IMG/VR virus record: IMGVR_UViG_3300042569_002607
Location: 1 to 64,000 of that record
From: a virus
Length of the DNA stretch: 64,000 nt
Strand: one strand, 5' to 3'
The notes beneath the pieces are model-generated. The model worked only from the letters and a program-made list of their open reading frames with translations. It searched no databases and had not been told where the DNA came from. A program made the position numbers and the translations under genes. Below are positions 1 to 43,037 of the stretch, piece after piece (within the stretch, counting starts at the first letter, position 1; the number at the start of each line of letters is the position of its first letter).

Positions 1-406
1 TGGTCGCCAGCGGTGGACATTCGCTATGTCGTTCGGCCAGAAGGTCCGCTACGAGCGGCCGCTCGACCACGAGCTGACGTACCAAGGGAGCGAGTACCCA
101 GGCTACGCGTTTCGCCCGTCCATCCACTTGCCGCGCTGGGCCTCACGCCTCACGCTGGAAATCACCGACGTGCGCGTGGAGCGGCTGCAGGACATCAGCG
201 AGGATGACGCGAGGGCCGAGGGATGCGCGTTGCCGCCGTCGGTCAACGAGCAGGCCAGCCGCACGCTGCATCGCGTCGAGTACTTCAAGCTGTGGGAATC
301 CCTGAATGCCGCACGCGGCTACGGCTGGGACGCGAATCCGTGGGTGTGGGTGGTTTCGTTCAATCGTGCCGCCGAGGTATCGGGTGGCCACGCTGCGCCA
401 GTCTGA
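1..406 (+). CDS. ASCH/PUA-like phage protein, 5'-truncated
   Basis: Typical C-terminus RPSIHLPRWASRLTLEITDVRVERLQDISEDDARAEG...WDANPWVWVVSF; frame is open from the window start. Confidence 0.7.
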   Translation, partial: GRQRWTFAMSFGQKVRYERPLDHELTYQGSEYPGYAFRPSIHLPRWASRLTLEITDVRVERLQDISEDDARAEGCALPPSVNEQASRTLHRVEYFKLWESLNAARGYGWDANPWVWVVSFNRAAEVSGGHAAPV

Positions 407-6123: not shown

Positions 6124-6921
6124 ATGCCCGAAATCATTCTCTCGCCCGTCGTCGATTCGCTGGAGACGGTCCCGGAATCCTACCGGGATCTGTATGAAGA
6201 GCGCGACGGAAAGCACATCCTCGGTAAGCCCATTCGCATCGACGACGTCAGCGAGATCAAAGGCGCGCTGGCGAATGAGCGACGCTTGCGACAGGAGCTC
6301 GCCGGCAAAGCCGGACAGCTGCCCGACGAAGTGAAGGTGAAGCTGCAGAAGGCGGAAGAACTCGAGCGCAAAGAGTTGGAGCGGCAGGGGCAGTATCAGG
6401 AACTCATCAAGTCGGCCGAGCAGAAGGCCGCGACCGAGATCCAGAAGTATCAGCAACGCGCGGACCGACTCAGCACCACGCTGACTCGCACGCTGGAGAC
6501 CAATGCTGCCACGAGCGCCATCAATAGTGCTGGCGGCATCGTGAAGGGGCTGCTGCCGCACGTGCTCCCGGAGCTCAAGGCCGTAGAGAACCCCGACCGC
6601 GAGGGAGAATTCACGGTGTACGTGATCGACCCGAAGGCCCCGGACAAGCCTCGGCTCAATCTCAAGACCGGTGAGCCCCTTACGGTCGATGAACTCATCG
6701 CCGAGAAGCGCGAAGACGATGTCTTGGCCAAGCTGTTCAGCGCCTCGCCCGCCACGGGCTCTGGCGGCGGCGGCTCGAACTTCGCGAAAGGCTCCGCGCG
6801 CATCGTGAAGCTGACCGCTGAGGAAGCGAAAGACACGAAGCGCTATCAGCAGCTCAAGGACCAGAAAGCCAAAGGCGAGATCGACGGCGCCATCGATCAC
6901 ATGGGCCGCAAGATCGTCTGA
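6124..6921 (+). CDS. capsid scaffolding protein
   Basis: DSLETVPESYRDLYEERDGK N-terminus, coiled coil, C-terminal GSGGG; GGAG RBS; lies before the MCP. Confidence 0.8.
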   Translation: MPEIILSPVVDSLETVPESYRDLYEERDGKHILGKPIRIDDVSEIKGALANERRLRQELAGKAGQLPDEVKVKLQKAEELERKELERQGQYQELIKSAEQKAATEIQKYQQRADRLSTTLTRTLETNAATSAINSAGGIVKGLLPHVLPELKAVENPDREGEFTVYVIDPKAPDKPRLNLKTGEPLTVDELIAEKREDDVLAKLFSASPATGSGGGGSNFAKGSARIVKLTAEEAKDTKRYQQLKDQKAKGEIDGAIDHMGRKIV

Positions 6922-35162: not shown

Positions 35163-36218
35163 ATGGCTCACGAACTCGACACCCGCGACAACGGCGCCGC
35201 CGCCTTCGTCTCCCTCCGCCAGTCCGCGTGGCACCAGCTCGGCACGATCGCCGCCGACGAAATGACATTCGACGAAGCGATGCATCTGGGCGGACTCGAT
35301 TACCCGTTGGCCCTTCGTCCGCTCACCACGTCGCTGTCTATCGAAGGCGCGAACGGCGACGAAATCGATACGCTCGCGATCGACGTCCCGGGACATCGCG
35401 CCGTAGTCCGCGCGGACCGGAATCTGGTGCTTGGCGTGGTCTCCGATCGCTACGAACTGGTGACGAATCGCGAGGCCATGCAGATGGTGGACGTGCTCGT
35501 GAATGACGGCCTCGCCGTGATCGAAACGGCGGGCGTGCTTCGCGAAGGCGCTGATGCGTGGATGGCGCTGCGCTTCACCGGTGAGCAGATCGACGCGGCT
35601 GGCGAGAACGGCGGCGACGAGATCAAGTTCTACGGGCTGGTTCGCACGAATCACAACGGCAAGGCCTCGGTTCAGGTCGCGACGACCCCCGTGCGGGTGG
35701 TGTGCGCGAATACACTGGCCATGGCGCTGGGCAACGGGCAGACGACGGTCCGCAGCGTGCTCCACATGGGGGCACAGGCACGGAACAAGGTGCGCGACGC
35801 GGCGCAGTCGCTGTGGTCCGGCACGTTGCAGGACGCCGAGAAGATGGCGGCGGCGTTTGCCACGATGCGCCGCACAAGCATTTCCGAAGCGCAGTTCGAA
35901 ACCGCGGTACTCGATGTCCTCTGCCCCATGCCGGCCGAGCCGGACGCCGACGCGTCCAAGCTGGCCCACGCGCTGTTCCCGTCGCGCGTGCTGAAGGCCA
36001 CCGAAACGCGCTTCCGCATTCAGGAACTGTGGATCAGCGGCACCGGCCAGCAGGGCGCGTGCACCGCGTGGGATGCCTATAACGCCTGCACGGAAGCGCT
36101 GGACCACTTCGACGCGGTGACCGTGAAGGGCGAGCGCCTGACGGCGCTCCTGCCGACGGGCAAGCTCGCGCAGCTGAAGGCCACCGTGTTCGATCGCCTG
36201 CTGTCGCTGGCCGTCTGA
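35163..36218 (+). CDS. DUF932 (LGT_TIGR03299-like) protein
   Basis: MAHEL...AWHQLG...LGVVSDRY...ETAGVLREG...TPVRVVCANT...TAWDAYNACTE. Confidence 0.9.
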   Translation: MAHELDTRDNGAAAFVSLRQSAWHQLGTIAADEMTFDEAMHLGGLDYPLALRPLTTSLSIEGANGDEIDTLAIDVPGHRAVVRADRNLVLGVVSDRYELVTNREAMQMVDVLVNDGLAVIETAGVLREGADAWMALRFTGEQIDAAGENGGDEIKFYGLVRTNHNGKASVQVATTPVRVVCANTLAMALGNGQTTVRSVLHMGAQARNKVRDAAQSLWSGTLQDAEKMAAAFATMRRTSISEAQFETAVLDVLCPMPAEPDADASKLAHALFPSRVLKATETRFRIQELWISGTGQQGACTAWDAYNACTEALDHFDAVTVKGERLTALLPTGKLAQLKATVFDRLLSLAV

Positions 36219-37191: not shown

Positions 37192-37577
37192 CGATCCTCC
37201 CGCCCGCGGGCGCGGTTCCGGCCGTTCCTTGCCCGTCTCCCGACACTTCTCCCGTTTCCCCTTCCCTACCTCCTTGCGCACCAGATGCGTCGGTTCACGG
37301 GGCCATTCCGCGGCGTATTGCGCCGGCCGCGCTTGACCGATTTATGACGGTGTACGAGCGGCAGCTCCGCGCGCTCGTTGTCCGGCCATCGCTCGGCTAC
37401 GGCTTCACGCTCGACGAGGTCCCGCGCGTCGTCGCACGAATGCGCGAAGCCTTCCGCACGGGCACTTACAACCGGAAGGGACATGCGCTCAACGGGACGT
37501 GCCGGAGTCTCGGGATCTCCACCTCGCGGCGGTCAATCGACGCGTACCTCAGCGGAGGGCGCGGTCATGGACCATAA
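37188..37577 (+). CDS. hypothetical phage protein
   Basis: GGAGGAG RBS; ends TCRSLGISTSRRSIDAYL. Confidence 0.55.
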   Translation: MTILPPAGAVPAVPCPSPDTSPVSPSLPPCAPDASVHGAIPRRIAPAALDRFMTVYERQLRALVVRPSLGYGFTLDEVPRVVARMREAFRTGTYNRKGHALNGTCRSLGISTSRRSIDAYLSGGRGHGP

Positions 37578-37905
37578 CGATCCCGCCTTCAAGCAATGGC
37601 TCGTCAGCGTCTCGGCGGCCGCCGCGCGTGAGCTGGCCGACGTCGTCACGCGCCCGTGTAGTGTGGCCGTCGTGCGCCGTGCCGTGCGCGCGGCGCTGCA
37701 GGACGACGCCTGTCCGTCGGACATCCGTGGCGAGCTCGTGACACACCTGACGCGTCTGACGAACGCGAACAAACCGGCGCGACGTGATGCGCCGGTGTTG
37801 GTGAAGTTCTCCGCCGAAGAAAAAGCGCGCGTGGCGGAGCGCGCCCGTGCCGCGAATGTCGCGGTGGCGACCTATATCCGGGCCTGTGCCCTAGGAGAAC
37901 TCTGA
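37567..37905 (+). CDS. ribbon-helix-helix (MobC-like) DNA-binding protein
   Basis: RRDAPVLVKFSAEEKARVAERARAANVAVATYIRACAL. Confidence 0.65.
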   Translation: MDHNDPAFKQWLVSVSAAAARELADVVTRPCSVAVVRRAVRAALQDDACPSDIRGELVTHLTRLTNANKPARRDAPVLVKFSAEEKARVAERARAANVAVATYIRACALGEL

Positions 37906-38561
37906 TGCCCCCGCGTTCCCCCGCGAACAAGTTGAGACCGCCGATGCCACCAGCCTCACCGGAAACGGCAGCGCTTACAATGCAGATGGTCCCAACTCTG
38001 TCCCTGCAGCCAGCGCCGTGGAACCCGCGGCGCATCGCGCCAGATGCGCGACAACGGCTGCGGGCAGGCATCGAACGGTTTGGCTTTGTACAACCCGTCA
38101 TCGCGCGCGAGGAGGACCGCCTCATTGTTGGCGGACATCAACGTTGGGACATCGCCGTTGAACTGCAGCTGCCCACCGTACCCGTCATCTTTCTCGCCGG
38201 TCTGACGGACGCGCGTGCAAAAGCGCTGGCCGTGCTGCTCAACAACAAAGATGCCCAGGGAGAGTGGGAGATGTCGTCGTTGACCGCTCTACTCGAGGAG
38301 CTTGCCGTGGATCCGCTGGAGGAGTTGCTGTCGGCGACTGGCTTCGAAGCGAGCTCGCTTGAAAAGCTGCTTGGGACTGGCGCGAGTGACGCGGCGGTGC
38401 TCACGCCGCTCGAAGTGCGGCCGCTCCCGAAGATGGTGTGGGTGCTGATCGGTGCGCCGTCTGGCCAGTACGCCGATATCGCCGACCGCGTCCAAGAGAT
38501 CGCGACCGTCTCGGGCATTCTGTGTGAGGTGGTGTCCAGTGACCACGGAGCGCCGGCGTGA
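37905..38561 (+). CDS. ParB N-terminal (ParBc/Srx) domain protein
   Basis: LQPAPWNPR...IERFGFVQPVI...IVGGHQR...LNN..GEW. Confidence 0.85.
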   Translation: MPPRSPANKLRPPMPPASPETAALTMQMVPTLSLQPAPWNPRRIAPDARQRLRAGIERFGFVQPVIAREEDRLIVGGHQRWDIAVELQLPTVPVIFLAGLTDARAKALAVLLNNKDAQGEWEMSSLTALLEELAVDPLEELLSATGFEASSLEKLLGTGASDAAVLTPLEVRPLPKMVWVLIGAPSGQYADIADRVQEIATVSGILCEVVSSDHGAPA

Positions 38562-39205
38562 GCGGCACGGGCAAAGTCGACAACGACTACTTCGGCGCGA
38601 AGCTGGCGCTGCGTCGGTACTTCCTTCGCACCTACCACGCGGGGCAGACCACGAAGGTGTTCGATGCGTGCCAGGCGACAGGACAATTGTGGAAGACCCT
38701 GCGCCAGGAGTTCGCGGTCTCGTACTTCGGCGTGGATCGTACGCCGCAACCCGGACGCCTGCAGATCGACTCGGCGCGAGTGCTGGCCACGCCCGGGTGG
38801 TCGTTCGACGTGATCGACGTCGATACCTACGGCGCTCCGTGGACGCACTGGGAACAGATTCTTCGGCATGGCCGCGCGCCGGTGTCGGTGTTTCTGACGA
38901 TCGGTTCGACGATGTTCAACGGGAGCACCGACAACGTCGCGCTACGCGCGATTGGCCTCGGGCCGATCATCAGCAAGATCCCGCCGTCGTTTCGCCGCCG
39001 GCTTGACGAACTTGGCGTAGATTATTGTCTGGCAATGAGTTACACTTACCGCTGGCGCGTGGTTGACGCACAAGAGGCACCCCGTGGACGGTCTGCGCGG
39101 TACCTCGGTCTCCACTTGGTACCCGAGGCTGTCGGCACGTCCGTGCCAAACCCGCAAGCGACCGGACACCACCCGGCGCCTGCGTCACCTTTCCCGAGGA
39201 CCTGA
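38558..39205 (+). CDS. Rossmann SAM-methyltransferase-like protein (TcmP/Trm1-like)
   Basis: VFDACQATGQLW (motif I-like), YFGVD (motif II), FDVIDVDTYGAPW (DPYG-like motif IV). Confidence 0.55.
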   Translation: MSGTGKVDNDYFGAKLALRRYFLRTYHAGQTTKVFDACQATGQLWKTLRQEFAVSYFGVDRTPQPGRLQIDSARVLATPGWSFDVIDVDTYGAPWTHWEQILRHGRAPVSVFLTIGSTMFNGSTDNVALRAIGLGPIISKIPPSFRRRLDELGVDYCLAMSYTYRWRVVDAQEAPRGRSARYLGLHLVPEAVGTSVPNPQATGHHPAPASPFPRT

Positions 39206-39207
39206 AC

Positions 39208-40098
39208 ATGGCAGAAGGCTCAATCATCGCGTGGACCAATCACACCCTGAACCCGTGGATGGGGTGTCTCAAGATCAGCGACGGCTGTAAGAACTGTTAC
39301 GCCGACACGCTGGTCACCAATCGCATGAAGCTGAACGTGTGGGGGCCTGCCTCCACAACCACGCGTAAGGTGACCAGCGCCGCTATCTGGGCGAAGCCGC
39401 ACAGCTGGAATCGCGCCGCCGCAAAGGCTGACGAGGAGACGTTTGTGTTCTGCGCGTCGCTCTGTGACGTCTTCGAAGATCATCCGGTCGCAGACGCCAC
39501 GCGGCCACGTCTCTGGGACGTCATCCGCGCTACGCCGCATCTCACCTGGCAGCTCTTGACCAAACGTCCTGAGCGCATTGCGGCACACCTGCCAGCGGAT
39601 TGGGGTGAGGGCTGGCCCCACGTGTGGCTCGGCACGTCGATCGAGGACATGCGCGTGGCGAGTCGCGCGGATCATCTGCGCCGCGTGCCGGCGGTGGTGC
39701 GCTTCATCAGCTACGAGCCGGCGCTCGGCCCGCTCGACGATCTCAACCTGTCCGGCATCGATTGGGTTATCTACGGCGGGGAGTCGGGACCCGGGTATCG
39801 AGCGCACGATCTCGCGTGGCCGCGCGTTATGCGCGATCGCTGTGCCGCGGAAGGCGTTGCCTTCTTCTTCAAGCAGTCGGCCGCGCCGCGCACCGAGATG
39901 GGCATTCGACTCGACGGAGAGTTGATCCGCCTCTGGCCAACGCCACGCACGGTGCAGCATCCGTCTTTTCCGGACTACCGACCAGCCAGCATTCGCCGCA
40001 CCCCGCCGGATAAGGACTACTCCCCGCGCTACTCCACAACGACACCGGCGGAACCGCCGGCGCTCGGCGCCGAGATAGCGGAAGGGCTGCTGCTGTAG
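39208..40098 (+). CDS. DUF5131 / Gp37-Gp68 three-Cys radical-SAM-like protein
   Basis: IAWT..T.NPWMGCLKISDGCKNCYA, FCASLCDVF, WQLLTKRPER, RFISYEP, WVIYGGESG, FFFKQ. Confidence 0.92.
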   Translation: MAEGSIIAWTNHTLNPWMGCLKISDGCKNCYADTLVTNRMKLNVWGPASTTTRKVTSAAIWAKPHSWNRAAAKADEETFVFCASLCDVFEDHPVADATRPRLWDVIRATPHLTWQLLTKRPERIAAHLPADWGEGWPHVWLGTSIEDMRVASRADHLRRVPAVVRFISYEPALGPLDDLNLSGIDWVIYGGESGPGYRAHDLAWPRVMRDRCAAEGVAFFFKQSAAPRTEMGIRLDGELIRLWPTPRTVQHPSFPDYRPASIRRTPPDKDYSPRYSTTTPAEPPALGAEIAEGLLL

Positions 40099-40109
40099 CG
40101 GCGCACGCG

Positions 40110-40592
40110 ATGAACGCGCCGCCGTATCCCGAACCGGTGAACGCGCCACGCGAGAAGCGACCGGATGGGTCGGTGCTGCTCCATGCAGCGCCGCCCCTGC
40201 GTCGCTTTCCCATCGCGGAAGCCCCAGGCTTCGCCGTCGAAGTCACCGATCGCCCCGAGGCGGTCTACTTGCTGGGGAAACCTGACGGCTCGGAGATCCC
40301 GGTCCCGTGCCGGCTCTGTGGCACCTGGAACCCTGCCACCATCAGTGGTCGGCACTTCTTCTACGCGTGGGAACCGGACGTCGCGCTCGAGCTCACCAGC
40401 GTGCGCCGCGTGGAGTGCCTTATCGGCCGCCTGGCGTTTCCCAGCGGCTGGGCGGCGTCGCCGTGGTTCGCGAACACGTCGCGCCGTGCCCTGCTCCGCC
40501 AGTTGAGTGCATTCACCGCGGCATTCCTCGACGAACGCCTCACGAAGTCGGTGGCACTCATGCGCGCGGTCTCACGGCAAGACGCGCGATAG
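40110..40592 (+). CDS. hypothetical protein
   Basis: Co-oriented ORF with CxxC. Confidence 0.45.
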   Translation: MNAPPYPEPVNAPREKRPDGSVLLHAAPPLRRFPIAEAPGFAVEVTDRPEAVYLLGKPDGSEIPVPCRLCGTWNPATISGRHFFYAWEPDVALELTSVRRVECLIGRLAFPSGWAASPWFANTSRRALLRQLSAFTAAFLDERLTKSVALMRAVSRQDAR

Positions 40593-40876: not shown

Positions 40877-40978
40877 CGCCAGCCCTCCCACGTTTCCGGT
40901 CGGTCTTCGTCCGCCGCAAGTGACGCGAAGCAGCGCTCGCGGGCGCGGCGCGGGATGCGCGGCCGGTGACTTATCGCG

Positions 40979-41007
40979 TTGACAACATAGGGGTATGCCC
41001 CTATTTT
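40979..41007 (+). promoter_or_regulatory. sigma70 promoter with palindromic operator
   Basis: TTGACA-17-TATTTT; ATAGGGG-TATG-CCCCTAT inverted repeat at 40987-41004. Confidence 0.7.
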
Positions 41008-41073
41008 TATGGTGTCGGCGCGAGTGGCGCCGGCACGAACCGCCCACTGGGGCGCTGCCCCGAGGATACCGAG

Positions 41074-41685
41074 ATGACCGCTTTCTTTGCCGCCTACACC
41101 GACGCCATGATCTGCGCCGTCGGCACGTCGCCCGCCGAGGCCATCGCGACCGCTCGCCGCGAGATGCAGGAGCCGGACGCCGAGCTGGAGACGGCGCGCA
41201 TTTCCGAGACGCTGGCCGCGTACATCGCCAGCGGTCACACGCCCCGCCGCTGGGACATCGTCGGCGGCTCGCTCATCGACACGACGCACGCCGATGCCGA
41301 CGCCGATTTCGTGCGGTGCGACTCCGACGCGGGCGACGGCGGGTGGTCGCTCCACGCGCCGGACAGCACGGACGAGGATATTGCCGAGGGGCTCGCGCTC
41401 GAACTGGCCAGCGGCACCGGCAAGCCCACGCGGGAGGACTACGACCTCGCCCGGGCGCAGATGGCGAGCCCGGCCCGCGCGTCGACGTGGGCGCTTCGGC
41501 GCCTCGTCGCCGCCTCCGGCCTCACGCCGACCGAGCTGTCCCGCGTGCTGGGCCGCGATGACCGCACGATGCGCCGCTGGCTGTCGGGGGAGCAGGACGT
41601 GCCCGACACGCTGGCGCAGCAGGTCGCGCGGCTCCGCGTCACGGCGGTGGACCCGGAGTGGGTCCACCTGACGTATCGCCGCTGA
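41074..41685 (+). CDS. acidic N-terminal domain(s) fused to a C-terminal XRE/Aca-like HTH
   Basis: SGLTPTELSRVLGRDDRTMRRWLSGEQDVP; GAGGA RBS. Confidence 0.65.
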   Translation: MTAFFAAYTDAMICAVGTSPAEAIATARREMQEPDAELETARISETLAAYIASGHTPRRWDIVGGSLIDTTHADADADFVRCDSDAGDGGWSLHAPDSTDEDIAEGLALELASGTGKPTREDYDLARAQMASPARASTWALRRLVAASGLTPTELSRVLGRDDRTMRRWLSGEQDVPDTLAQQVARLRVTAVDPEWVHLTYRR

Positions 41686-42485
41686 TGGCGCGACCGAAAG
41701 CCACGGTCCCGGACGAGCCGCTCCCGAGCGAGGACTACATCACGCTGTTCGACGGGCAGGGAGCGAGCCCGTCGCGTGGCTACATGCTCGCGATGACGAT
41801 GGACGGCACGCACCGCAAGGTGTGGCACGGGGTCGCCAAGTACGGATCGTGGGCGGCGGCGCTTGCGGCCGCGCGTCAGGCGCGGGAAATCTGGCTGGCG
41901 ACGCGCGACCCGCAGGATGCCGTGCCCGGCCGGGGGAAGCGGGCGCATACGCGCGGGTGTCGGTATGACGCAGTGCGGCGGCAGTGGGTCGCACGCTGGA
42001 CCGATCCCATCGTGCGGCGCCTGTACTCCGTCGGCTGTGGCGACGGCGAGGCCGGCCGGGAGCGTGCCCACGCACTGCGCGCAGAGGCCGAATCCCGGAT
42101 TGCGTCGCATCGCCCGACGATGGACCTGGTGCCGCCGAGGGGACGGGCGCCGGCGATCCGGCGCCAGACGAAAGAGGCGCTGACAGAGCGGTTGGCCGAT
42201 CTCCAGCGCAAGATTTGGGCGCTCAAGTCGGAGCAGCACCGGGTGCGCCTGAGCCTGCGCGCGCTTGAGGGCGACGACGGGCCAGCGCCGGCCATGCCGC
42301 AGCACGAGAGCCGCACGCTCCGCGCCGAGGTCGCGCGCATGTCGCGGGCCGGGTACAGTGTGCGCGACATCGCGTCGCATCTCGGCATCACCGAGCGCGC
42401 GGTGTATTCGCACCGGCACAAGGCGGGGGTAGCGACGCCCAGAGCGGAAACGCCGGGCGAGCCGCAGCCGCCAGACGGGGGTTGA
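41685..42485 (+). CDS. AP2-like domain(s) + coiled coil + HTH protein
   Basis: KYGSWAAALAAARQAR, GCRYDAVRRQWVARW, GYSVRDIASHLGITERAVY. Confidence 0.55.
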   Translation: MARPKATVPDEPLPSEDYITLFDGQGASPSRGYMLAMTMDGTHRKVWHGVAKYGSWAAALAAARQAREIWLATRDPQDAVPGRGKRAHTRGCRYDAVRRQWVARWTDPIVRRLYSVGCGDGEAGRERAHALRAEAESRIASHRPTMDLVPPRGRAPAIRRQTKEALTERLADLQRKIWALKSEQHRVRLSLRALEGDDGPAPAMPQHESRTLRAEVARMSRAGYSVRDIASHLGITERAVYSHRHKAGVATPRAETPGEPQPPDGG

Positions 42486-42581: not shown

Positions 42582-43037
42582 ATGGAAGCTGTGTCCCTCC
42601 CCTCGTGGTGCCGCATTGTCCGGGAGACGTCGCCGGAGCTGGTGGCCGCGTTCGCCGCACGCCCGACAATCGCCGGCCCGACGGATGCGGCCGCGTACCT
42701 CGCCCCGCGCCTCGTCGCTGAAGAGGTTGAGGTGTTTGCGGTCATGATGCTCGACGCACAGAACCGTGTCATGGCGATGCACGAAGTCACGCGCGGGTTG
42801 GTAAACTCCTCGCTGGTCCATCCGCGTGAGGTGTTCCGGCTCGCGATTGCGGTCGGCGCGTCATCCATCATCGTCGCGCACAATCACCCGAGCGGCGTGC
42901 TGACGCCGAGCCCGGAAGACATCGAGGTCACGCGCGCGCTCGTGGCCGCCGGCGAAGTGCTGGACATCCCCGTCCGCGATCACCTGATCATCGGCCTCAG
43001 TGGCCACCGGTCGCTGGCGTCGGACGGGTACATCTGA
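42582..43037 (+). CDS. radC: RadC-family JAB domain protein
   Basis: EVFAVMMLD...SLVHPREVF...AHNHPSG..PSPED...DHLII. Confidence 0.9.
   Translation: MEAVSLPSWCRIVRETSPELVAAFAARPTIAGPTDAAAYLAPRLVAEEVEVFAVMMLDAQNRVMAMHEVTRGLVNSSLVHPREVFRLAIAVGASSIIVAHNHPSGVLTPSPEDIEVTRALVAAGEVLDIPVRDHLIIGLSGHRSLASDGYI

Follow-up and report, generated by a model that had tools for sequence, protein, structure and literature searches.

A phage operon encoding ParB-N, methyltransferase-fold and DUF5131 radical-SAM-like proteins as a candidate nucleic-acid modification module

The three genes and their products

Virus record IMGVR_UViG_3300042569_002607 is the complete genome of an environmental phage, 73,670 bp long with direct repeats at its termini, and it contains terminase, portal, head/capsid and integrase genes. 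The window, by which we mean the whole stretch of 64,000 nucleotides analysed here, corresponds to positions 1 to 64,000 of this record and has a G+C content of about 66%. Within it, three consecutive open reading frames (ORFs) on the + strand span positions 37905–40098 (Table 1). They encode a ParB-N protein, a protein that we call MID and a DUF5131 protein resembling radical S-adenosylmethionine (SAM) enzymes. An earlier note on this DNA had described them as three tightly coupled genes and a candidate DNA-modification system. The coupling is evident from the ORFs and from both junctions as read from the sequence: the ParB-N and MID genes share a 4-nt overlap (GTGA), and MID and DUF5131 are separated by a 2-nt gap (TGA-AC-ATG).

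Table 1. Coordinates of the features discussed (window positions, unless residues or another locus are indicated)
Feature	Coordinates	Strand	Remarks
Upstream NikA/MobA-like ribbon-helix-helix ORF	37378..37905	+	start codon uncertain
ParB-N protein, 218 aa	37905..38561	+	PF02195
ParB/sulfiredoxin-fold N-domain of ParB-N protein	residues ~26-113		NPR and GGHQR motifs; linker follows
Conserved C-terminal domain of ParB-N protein	residues ~160-215		PPPxMxWVLIGxP block, alignment of 50 orthologues
MID, 215 aa, GTG start	38558..39205	+	class I SAM-methyltransferase fold (model)
MID N-terminal KLxLRR helix	residues 14-21		outside methyltransferase core; in predicted ParB-N interface
MID motif I, FDACQATG	residues 35-42		D36 invariant, last Gly conserved
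MID acidic residue ending strand 2	D60		invariant
MID DS	residues 71-72
MID motif IV, DVDTYG	residues 87-92		within DVIDVDTYG
MID C-terminal tail	residues ~190-215		unconserved, low model confidence
DUF5131 radical-SAM-like protein, 296 aa	39208..40098	+	PF07505
160-aa ORF, no known family	40110..40592	+	starts 11 nt after DUF5131
17-nt repeat copy (TTGCG-N4-TGGCACG type)	39142..39158	-	codons of MID residues 195-201
17-nt repeat, forward copies	2975, 6012, 24325, 55595, 56638, 59342, 61127	+
17-nt repeat, inverted copies	39142, 61245	-
ParB-N-N6_N4 fusion genes in other loci	L148:3740-5008; L156:786-1973; L164:5435-6790

The first protein passes the gathering cut-off of PF02195 (E = 1.9e-8; 34.7 bits against 26.3). 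It also matches the N-terminal ~140 residues of phrog_498, a family annotated 'DNA methyltransferase' (E = 1.3e-29), as well as phrog_620 (E ~1e-29) and positions 9–146 of the PADLOC MTase_II model, in agreement with the previous description of a ParBc domain of the type fused to phage DNA methylases. The methylase domain of such fusions, PF01555, was detected neither in this protein nor in MID. As a canonical partition ParB (TIGR00180) the protein scores 27.9 bits against a cut-off of 58.45, over the N-domain only, and its C-terminal domain is family-specific, unlike the helix-turn-helix (HTH)/dimerisation architecture of canonical ParB.

MID has no significant match to any family in Pfam, PHROG, NCBIfam or PADLOC. 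It has 137 close homologues, and a profile search covering 1.84 billion cluster representatives retrieved 887 of them at E ≤ 1e-3 and 264 at E ≤ 1e-30; the best 150 are all stand-alone proteins of 142–295 aa. No match was found in 50,697 GenBank phage records or 72,556 PLSDB plasmids, and the three-gene set is not known from any cultured phage. The family profile had no match to PDB sequences at E ≤ 10; only fold comparison placed the family. Four homologues (P0112, 293 aa long, P0127, P0134 and P0136) have an N-terminal extension of 70–110 residues, which in P0112 is an HNH domain (PF01844).

The AlphaFold model of MID (predicted local distance difference test score, pLDDT, of 87.7) is that of a class I methyltransferase fold. 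Foldseek returned 355 PDB matches at E ≤ 1e-3, nearly all of those listed being methyltransferases, with Trm1 (3axs) as the best (E = 1.3e-7); among BFVD viral structures, only generic methyltransferases matched, with template modelling (TM) scores of 0.4–0.6. VIA-align found 801 chains at Z ≥ 8, headed by RsmD/YhhF (2fpo; Z = 13.2, root-mean-square deviation (rmsd) 2.6 Å over 140 aligned residues) and Trm1 (3axs; Z = 12.6, rmsd 3.6 Å over 172 residues), and RlmI-like, TYW2 and Trm5 proteins lay within 1 Z of these two. The nearest folds thus include the N2-guanine methyltransferases Trm1 (tRNA m2,2G26) and RsmD (16S rRNA m2G966).

The resemblance to Trm1 extends to sequence motifs. An hhalign comparison of the MID profile with an archaeal Trm1 sequence gave E = 0.002 over 79 columns, across motifs I–IV; it pairs FDACQATG with ADALAGTG, FDVIDVDTYGAP with FDVVDLDPCGSP, and the MID motif DVDTYG with motif IV of archaeal Trm1, DLDPCG, with Thr in place of Pro. 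In the MID family as a whole motif I reads FDxCQGxG, and the clade of this phage has Ala for the first Gly. Among 40 homologues D87, D89 and Y91 are invariant and T90 nearly so, and the family's invariant residues include D8, N9, K15, R19, R20, D36, C38, D60, S72, D87, D89 and Y91. The Rossmann fold and the DxxxxxG and DVIDVDTYG motifs ascribed earlier to the middle protein thus stand, whereas the reported lack of a canonical catalytic motif does not: because DVDTYG aligns with DLDPCG, motif IV is a variant rather than absent. As to whether the middle ORF has a SAM-binding fold, Foldseek, VIA-align and the Trm1 alignment agree in pointing to the class I methyltransferase fold. MID is nevertheless no ordinary Trm1. 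It stays below the family cut-offs (11.5 bits against 27 for PF02005; 11 against 280.65 for TIGR00308), and only the catalytic domain aligns (residues 3–190 of the model to 17–230 of the 387 in the 3axs chain). Weak family matches among 40 MID members were to PrmC (23/40) and TRM1 (9/40).

The third protein is a member of PF07505 (E = 1e-68; 231.9 bits against a cut-off of 28.9) and also matches phrog_2045, as well as the PADLOC models PDC-M41B and PDC-M30B (E = 1e-56 and 7e-52). Only component B of these candidate systems is present; component A of PDC-M41/PDC-M30 had no match in MID or the other neighbours scanned. The predicted Cx6Cx2C protein is confirmed, with cysteines C20-x6-C27-x2-C30 invariant in 44 sequences. 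Also invariant in this set is GGESG, starting at G190, within YGGESG at residues 189–194. The protein therefore has the N-terminal three-Cys motif and the GGE-type motif by which radical SAM enzymes are recognized, with the spacing Cx6Cx2C rather than CX3CX2C. Its model (pLDDT 90.9, the last ~50 residues being disordered) has a partial TIM-barrel fold like that of solved radical SAM members. It is nearest to spore photoproduct lyase (SPL; Z = 13.3, rmsd 3.2 Å, 203 residues aligned), and the next neighbours, SuiB, a viperin-like enzyme and RlmN, follow 2 Z units below (Z = 10.6–11.3); Foldseek alone gave a weak result (E = 1e-3). The SFLD/RadicalSAM.org scheme lists DUF5131 among the subgroups of radical SAM enzymes (PMC9477430), and in the literature searched it is named only as such, without a function. 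The family occurs in 159 of the 50,697 GenBank phage records and in at least 595 IMG/VR stretches.

Conservation of the arrangement and a predicted complex

With the MID alignment as query, 35 genome loci and 80 loci on IMG/VR viral contigs were retrieved. All of the former are metagenome-assembled; their sources are Planctomycetota, Verrucomicrobiota, Gemmatimonadota, Acidobacteriota, some Alphaproteobacteria and others. Upstream neighbours were counted where the sequence before MID was at least 700 nt long (88 loci) and downstream neighbours where at least 1 kb followed it (101 loci). In 74 of the 88 loci the gene immediately before MID encodes a ParB-N protein, and in a further 8 such a gene is found 0.2–4 kb away. 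In most loci its stop overlaps the MID start, by 8 nt in 31 of them, by 20 nt in 10 and by 4 nt in 9. ParB-N and MID were seen only as separate proteins: neither a ParB-MID nor a MID-DUF5131 fusion turned up in 112 loci, among the best 150 representatives (all ≤295 aa) or in proteins of at least 514 aa, those of 377–514 aa lying outside the last of these searches. An apparent 513-aa MID-DUF5131 frame in the locus most closely related to that of this phage (L036) was rejected, as the tblastn alignment ran through a stop codon.

The predicted structure of the ParB-N–MID complex is in line with this arrangement. Three runs scored 0.67, 0.68 and 0.65, compared with 0.00, 0.00 and 0.27 for controls; 58 of 80 solved complexes and 2 of 110 mismatched pairs attain the mark against which such scores are read, counts that hold only roughly because our own alignments were used. 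At least 60% of contacts are shared between runs, and partner pLDDT is 73 or higher. On the ParB-N side, the predicted interface consists of residues 162–181 and 206–212, that is, the conserved C-terminal block; on the MID side, it comprises residues 14–21, the invariant KLxLRR helix with K15, R19 and R20, together with residues 132–185. The models support binding of the ParB-N protein to MID, and we consider it likely that the complex forms.

Downstream of MID the picture is more varied. A radical SAM gene is present in 70 of the 101 loci, DUF5131 in 52 and another radical SAM gene in 18. In 31 of 103 loci DUF5131 adjoins MID, at a distance within 300 nt that is often −8 to +3 nt, and the alternative gene is usually the very next one after MID. 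The alternative protein matches PF04055 (E = 1.6e-8) and, weakly, the models for Rv2578c, PA0069, mobile-pair B and SPL; it is about 265 aa long and takes the place of DUF5131 directly after MID in L047 (3095-3892) and 19 other loci, among them L009, L046, L052, L073 and L090. In GenBank phages it has 2 records, neither of which is phage M6, so that these matches do not identify it as a homologue of M6 gp53. DUF5131 and the alternative radical SAM gene occur together in none of the 101 loci (hypergeometric P = 3e-7, a value that is only indicative because MID loci are related to one another). In 32 of these loci a large terminase gene lies within 3.5 kb downstream.

The ParB-N protein and MID are therefore the obligate unit, and DUF5131 is facultative. 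The genes do co-occur elsewhere, as the proposal of an operon had implied, and its ParB-N and MID part stands; DUF5131 as a fixed member does not, being present in 52 of the 101 loci and replaced in 18.

Several loci carry additional genes. In about 10, an AAA+ clamp-loader-like protein is encoded between MID and DUF5131 (for example L012:6797-7573), often together with a 344-aa protein assigned to no family. A DUF932 gene is inserted at the same place in 6 loci, and in 5 a second, different ParB-N protein is encoded directly downstream of MID (for example L085:4648-5247).

The surroundings of DUF5131 itself were viewed in the 80 IMG/VR loci, of at least 595, whose DUF5131 is most similar to that of this phage. 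ParB-N and MID are present in 13 of the 80, concentrated among the closest DUF5131 sequences. In three others, a fusion of ParB-N with an N6_N4 DNA methylase lies directly beside DUF5131, upstream in L148 and L156 and downstream in L164, thereby occupying the slot of ParB-N and MID. The DUF5131 proteins of the sibling phages with the upstream fusion are 58–70% identical to that of this phage, L148 reaching 70%. A fusion-like match was found 0.7–2.7 kb from DUF5131 in three more loci (L182 and, more weakly, L187 and L193). TcmP adjoins DUF5131 in 5 of the 80, two of which have a Dam-type methylase on the other side; Dam-type methylases stand upstream of DUF5131 in L184 and L196. Given such varied neighbours, DUF5131 recurs beside methyltransferase-type genes of several unrelated families and requires none of them. 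About 52 of the 80 have no MID, TcmP or ParB-domain gene within ~5 kb, and therefore DUF5131 can work without such a partner.

TcmP, which in the literature searched appears in tables only, is itself methyltransferase-like by sequence: its profile has a weak match to RlmJ (E = 0.007) and contains YIDxFAGxG and DPFG motifs. The pair is also found in cultured, temperate Gordonia phages. In Fairfaxidum (L227), gp42–gp43 form a TcmP-DUF5131 pair between the integrase and the immunity repressor, and gp43, annotated 'methyltransferase', is TcmP (E = 1e-38). In BaxterFox (L228), gp42 and an unannotated DUF5131 frame, covered in the annotation by three small opposite-strand genes, are likewise located between integrase and immunity repressor. 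The pairing of DUF5131 with TcmP that the earlier note named is thus real in the 5 adjacent cases and in the Gordonia phages, but it does not describe the present operon or most of the sampled loci. The idea that MID is a relative of TcmP was rejected, since MID has no match to TIGR04474 at E ≤ 1 and hhalign against TcmP alignments gave E = 0.15 and 0.29.

Flanking genes and a repeated 17-nt element

The stop codon of the ORF upstream of the three genes overlaps the ParB-N start as TGATG. A ribbon-helix-helix domain occupies the C-terminal part of its product (PF21983, E = 6.6e-8, residues 135–173; NF041264 MobA, E = 1.7e-5), and such an ORF also precedes the operon in L036. It is probably the first gene of the operon or its regulator. 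The 160-aa ORF that follows DUF5131 is kept only in the closest relative (tblastn E = 1e-47, L036 alone) and is possibly the last gene of the unit. Between 37378 and ~40979 we found no sigma-70-like promoter and no terminator-like site on the + strand; terminator-like sites in this span are confined to the - strand, where two lie at ~37823–37846 within the ribbon-helix-helix ORF. Farther out, the operon is flanked by genes for DUF932, a RadC-like JAB protein and two HTH proteins (35163–36218, 42582–43037 and 40966–42485, respectively), a set typical of early or leading regions of mobile elements.

The earlier note had also pointed to an inverted regulon motif at 39142. A 17-nt element is indeed found there, with 9 copies in the window at ≤3 mismatches compared with 0.3 expected and with none of 100 shuffles reaching 9. 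The copy at 39142 has the opposite orientation to 7 of the other 8. Those seven, on the + strand, read CTTGCG(G/C)(G/T)T(T/C)TGGCAC(G/A), and at least six of them lie in intergenic gaps, a few bases after stop codons. The element contains TGGCACG, not in the −24/−12 arrangement of sigma-54 promoters. Its copy in the operon is located 50 nt before the DUF5131 start, in codons for the unconserved tail of MID. In the nearest relative, L036, whose MID is ~70–75% and DUF5131 81% identical to those of this phage, MID stops earlier; an inverted copy is found at 6589–6604, in the 72-nt spacer between MID and DUF5131, and a forward copy follows DUF5131. The element is thus real and its position conserved. 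A local palindrome, GGCACGTCCGTGCC, was rejected as the repeated unit, its 2 matches not differing significantly from the 1.2 expected; the real repeat is the overlapping 17-mer.

Proposed function and its alternatives

We propose that the locus is a phage module for nucleic-acid modification whose most likely target is the phage's own DNA once replicated, with coupled chemistries and a protective role. We would put the probability of this reading at roughly one half. It is favored because the folds of all three proteins are tied to nucleic acids and because the ParB-N–MID pair mirrors the fusions of ParB-N with DNA methylases. Such fusions of a ParB fold with a methyltransferase have been reported to be enriched among phages and prophages, with ATP binding by some of them (PMC12704722).

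In the proposed mechanism, the ParB-N protein and MID would form a two-subunit enzyme, a split counterpart of phage ParB-N–DNA-methyltransferase fusions. The ParB/sulfiredoxin-fold N-domain may supply DNA or NTP binding, while the C-terminal domain of the same protein would dock on the N-terminal KLxLRR helix and the last β-strands of MID. MID itself would be a Trm1/RsmD-like SAM-dependent transferase, and it would probably methylate a base amino group, because its invariant Asp 89 and Tyr 91 occupy the position at which amino-methyltransferases bind the exocyclic amine of their target. DUF5131 could act as a frequent, exchangeable third component, performing a radical step on DNA, either at the methylated base or at another position. 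The likely purpose would be to shield phage DNA from host nucleases.

We infer these elements with unequal confidence. MID is probably catalytically active. DNA is, on balance, the likelier substrate, and coupling of MID to the radical SAM enzyme in function appears likely to a similar degree. Anti-restriction as the purpose is a tentative suggestion, slightly short of even odds. More specific chemistry, in which a ParB-tethered Trm1/RsmD-like enzyme would alkylate an exocyclic amine that an SPL-like radical SAM enzyme then elaborates into a base modification not yet described, seems to us doubtful, and guanine N2 in the minor groove as the target is a guess by analogy.

The ingredients of the module are of known kinds. 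The closest analogs are the ParB-N–DNA methyltransferase fusions (PF02195 + PF01555; phrog_498; MTase_II), which have the same type of ParB-N domain and likewise combine ParB and SAM methyltransferase folds. Here, by contrast, the two are separate, translationally coupled proteins, with a dedicated C-terminal domain in one and predicted docking on the other, and MID belongs to an unnamed Trm1/RsmD-like family rather than to PF01555. The TcmP-DUF5131 pair (TIGR04474 + PF07505) shares with the present locus DUF5131, a methyltransferase-like partner and adjacent, often overlapping genes; however, MID has ~190 aa compared with 280–390 for TcmP, and TcmP loci have no ParB-N partner. With respect to Trm1 and RsmD, motifs I (DACQATG/DALAGTG) and IV align, but the context of MID is a phage operon with a ParB partner. 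On the radical SAM side, DUF5131 is nearest to SPL, and gp53 of phage M6, the SPL-like radical SAM isomerase of thymidine hypermodification, edits the modified DNA after replication and so acts on phage DNA bases (PMC8989533); DUF5131 differs in that its cysteines are spaced Cx6Cx2C, not CX3CX2C, and that it stays short of a match to PF04055. The thymidine hypermodification pathways are also distinct, as the operon has no genes for 5-hydroxymethyldeoxyuridine (5-hmdU) kinase, aGPT-Pplase or pyridoxal phosphate (PLP) enzymes and the partner is a methyltransferase-fold protein. We found no description in the literature searched of the MID family, of its dedicated ParB adaptor domain or of the alternation of two radical SAM families behind it.

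A number of observations weigh against a modification module acting on DNA. The MID loci are related to one another, and the counts are therefore not independent events; 31 of the 101 have no radical SAM gene in the flank. Conversely, the roughly 52 of 80 phage DUF5131 genes that lack a MID, TcmP or ParB-domain neighbor indicate that DUF5131 does not need such a partner. The TcmP-DUF5131 pairs of Gordonia phages, sitting beside integrase and repressor, belong to a lysogeny module, for which defence is just as conceivable a role, and PADLOC lists DUF5131 in candidate defence systems. As for MID, its nearest structural neighbors all act on RNA and none on DNA, its motif I is degenerate in this clade (DACQATG, not GxG), and its motif IV has Thr where amino-methyltransferases have Pro.

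Some of these points suit an alternative in which only the ParB-N protein and MID are functional together, as an orphan DNA methyltransferase, and DUF5131 is an independent enzyme, such as an SPL-like lyase that repairs UV lesions or a participant in nucleotide metabolism, and shares the operon through timing alone. The absence of DUF5131 from about half of the MID loci, the two thirds or so of sampled phage DUF5131 genes without the neighbors named above, and a repair enzyme as the best structural match are all consistent with such independence. Yet two radical SAM families share the slot after MID and never occur together, in many loci the MID stop codon overlaps the start of the radical SAM gene or lies 1–3 nt from it, and DUF5131 is also found beside ParB-N6_N4, Dam and TcmP methyltransferase-type genes. 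Weighing both sides, we consider independent roles unlikely.

A defence role would account for other features. The module could serve superinfection exclusion by a temperate phage, marking or damaging incoming DNA, or marking self DNA for an effector. This phage does have an integrase, DUF5131 matches the PDC-M41B and PDC-M30B models, the pairs of Fairfaxidum and BaxterFox adjoin an immunity repressor, and one MID homologue (P0112) is fused to an HNH domain. However, PDC systems are themselves only candidates, and neither MID nor the ParB-N protein matches a PDC partner model, the sole PADLOC match of the latter being to the ParB-like N-terminus of the generic MTase_II model. Moreover, no nuclease or other effector is conserved with the module, which in 32 of the 101 loci lies just upstream of terminase, in the lytic part of the genome. 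Defence is thus an improbable role.

There is a precedent for methylation followed by a radical step on RNA: in the wybutosine pathway, Trm5 methylation precedes the action of the radical SAM enzyme TYW1. A corresponding RNA target, with a base of tRNA or rRNA first methylated by MID, in the manner of Trm1 and RsmD, and then elaborated by the radical SAM enzyme, would fit the close structural neighbors of MID (RsmD, Trm1, Trm5, TYW2 and RlmI-like proteins, all RNA methyltransferases) and its weak sequence matches to TRM1 and PrmC, but it is hardly probable given that MID lacks the C-terminal RNA-binding domain of Trm1 (215 aa against 375 profile positions), that it is constantly paired with a ParB-N domain such as occurs in fusions with DNA methylases, that ParB-N6_N4 DNA methylases replace it in sibling loci and that the window contains no tRNA gene.

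Whatever the exact chemistry of the proposed DNA-modification module, the locus links DUF5131 to ParB-methyltransferase combinations, which as fusions are common in phages and whose roles there are largely untried, and it reveals two different radical SAM enzymes of the SPL clan that are interchangeable behind MID. The three-gene set is also compact, at ~2.2 kb. If DNA is indeed modified, its radical SAM component would be among the very few such enzymes known to act on DNA, and the module could represent a new route by which phages evade restriction. If, in addition, alkylation is followed by a radical step, the system would be a DNA counterpart of the wybutosine logic, and it would provide a first function for DUF5131 and, by extension, for the TcmP-DUF5131 pairs.

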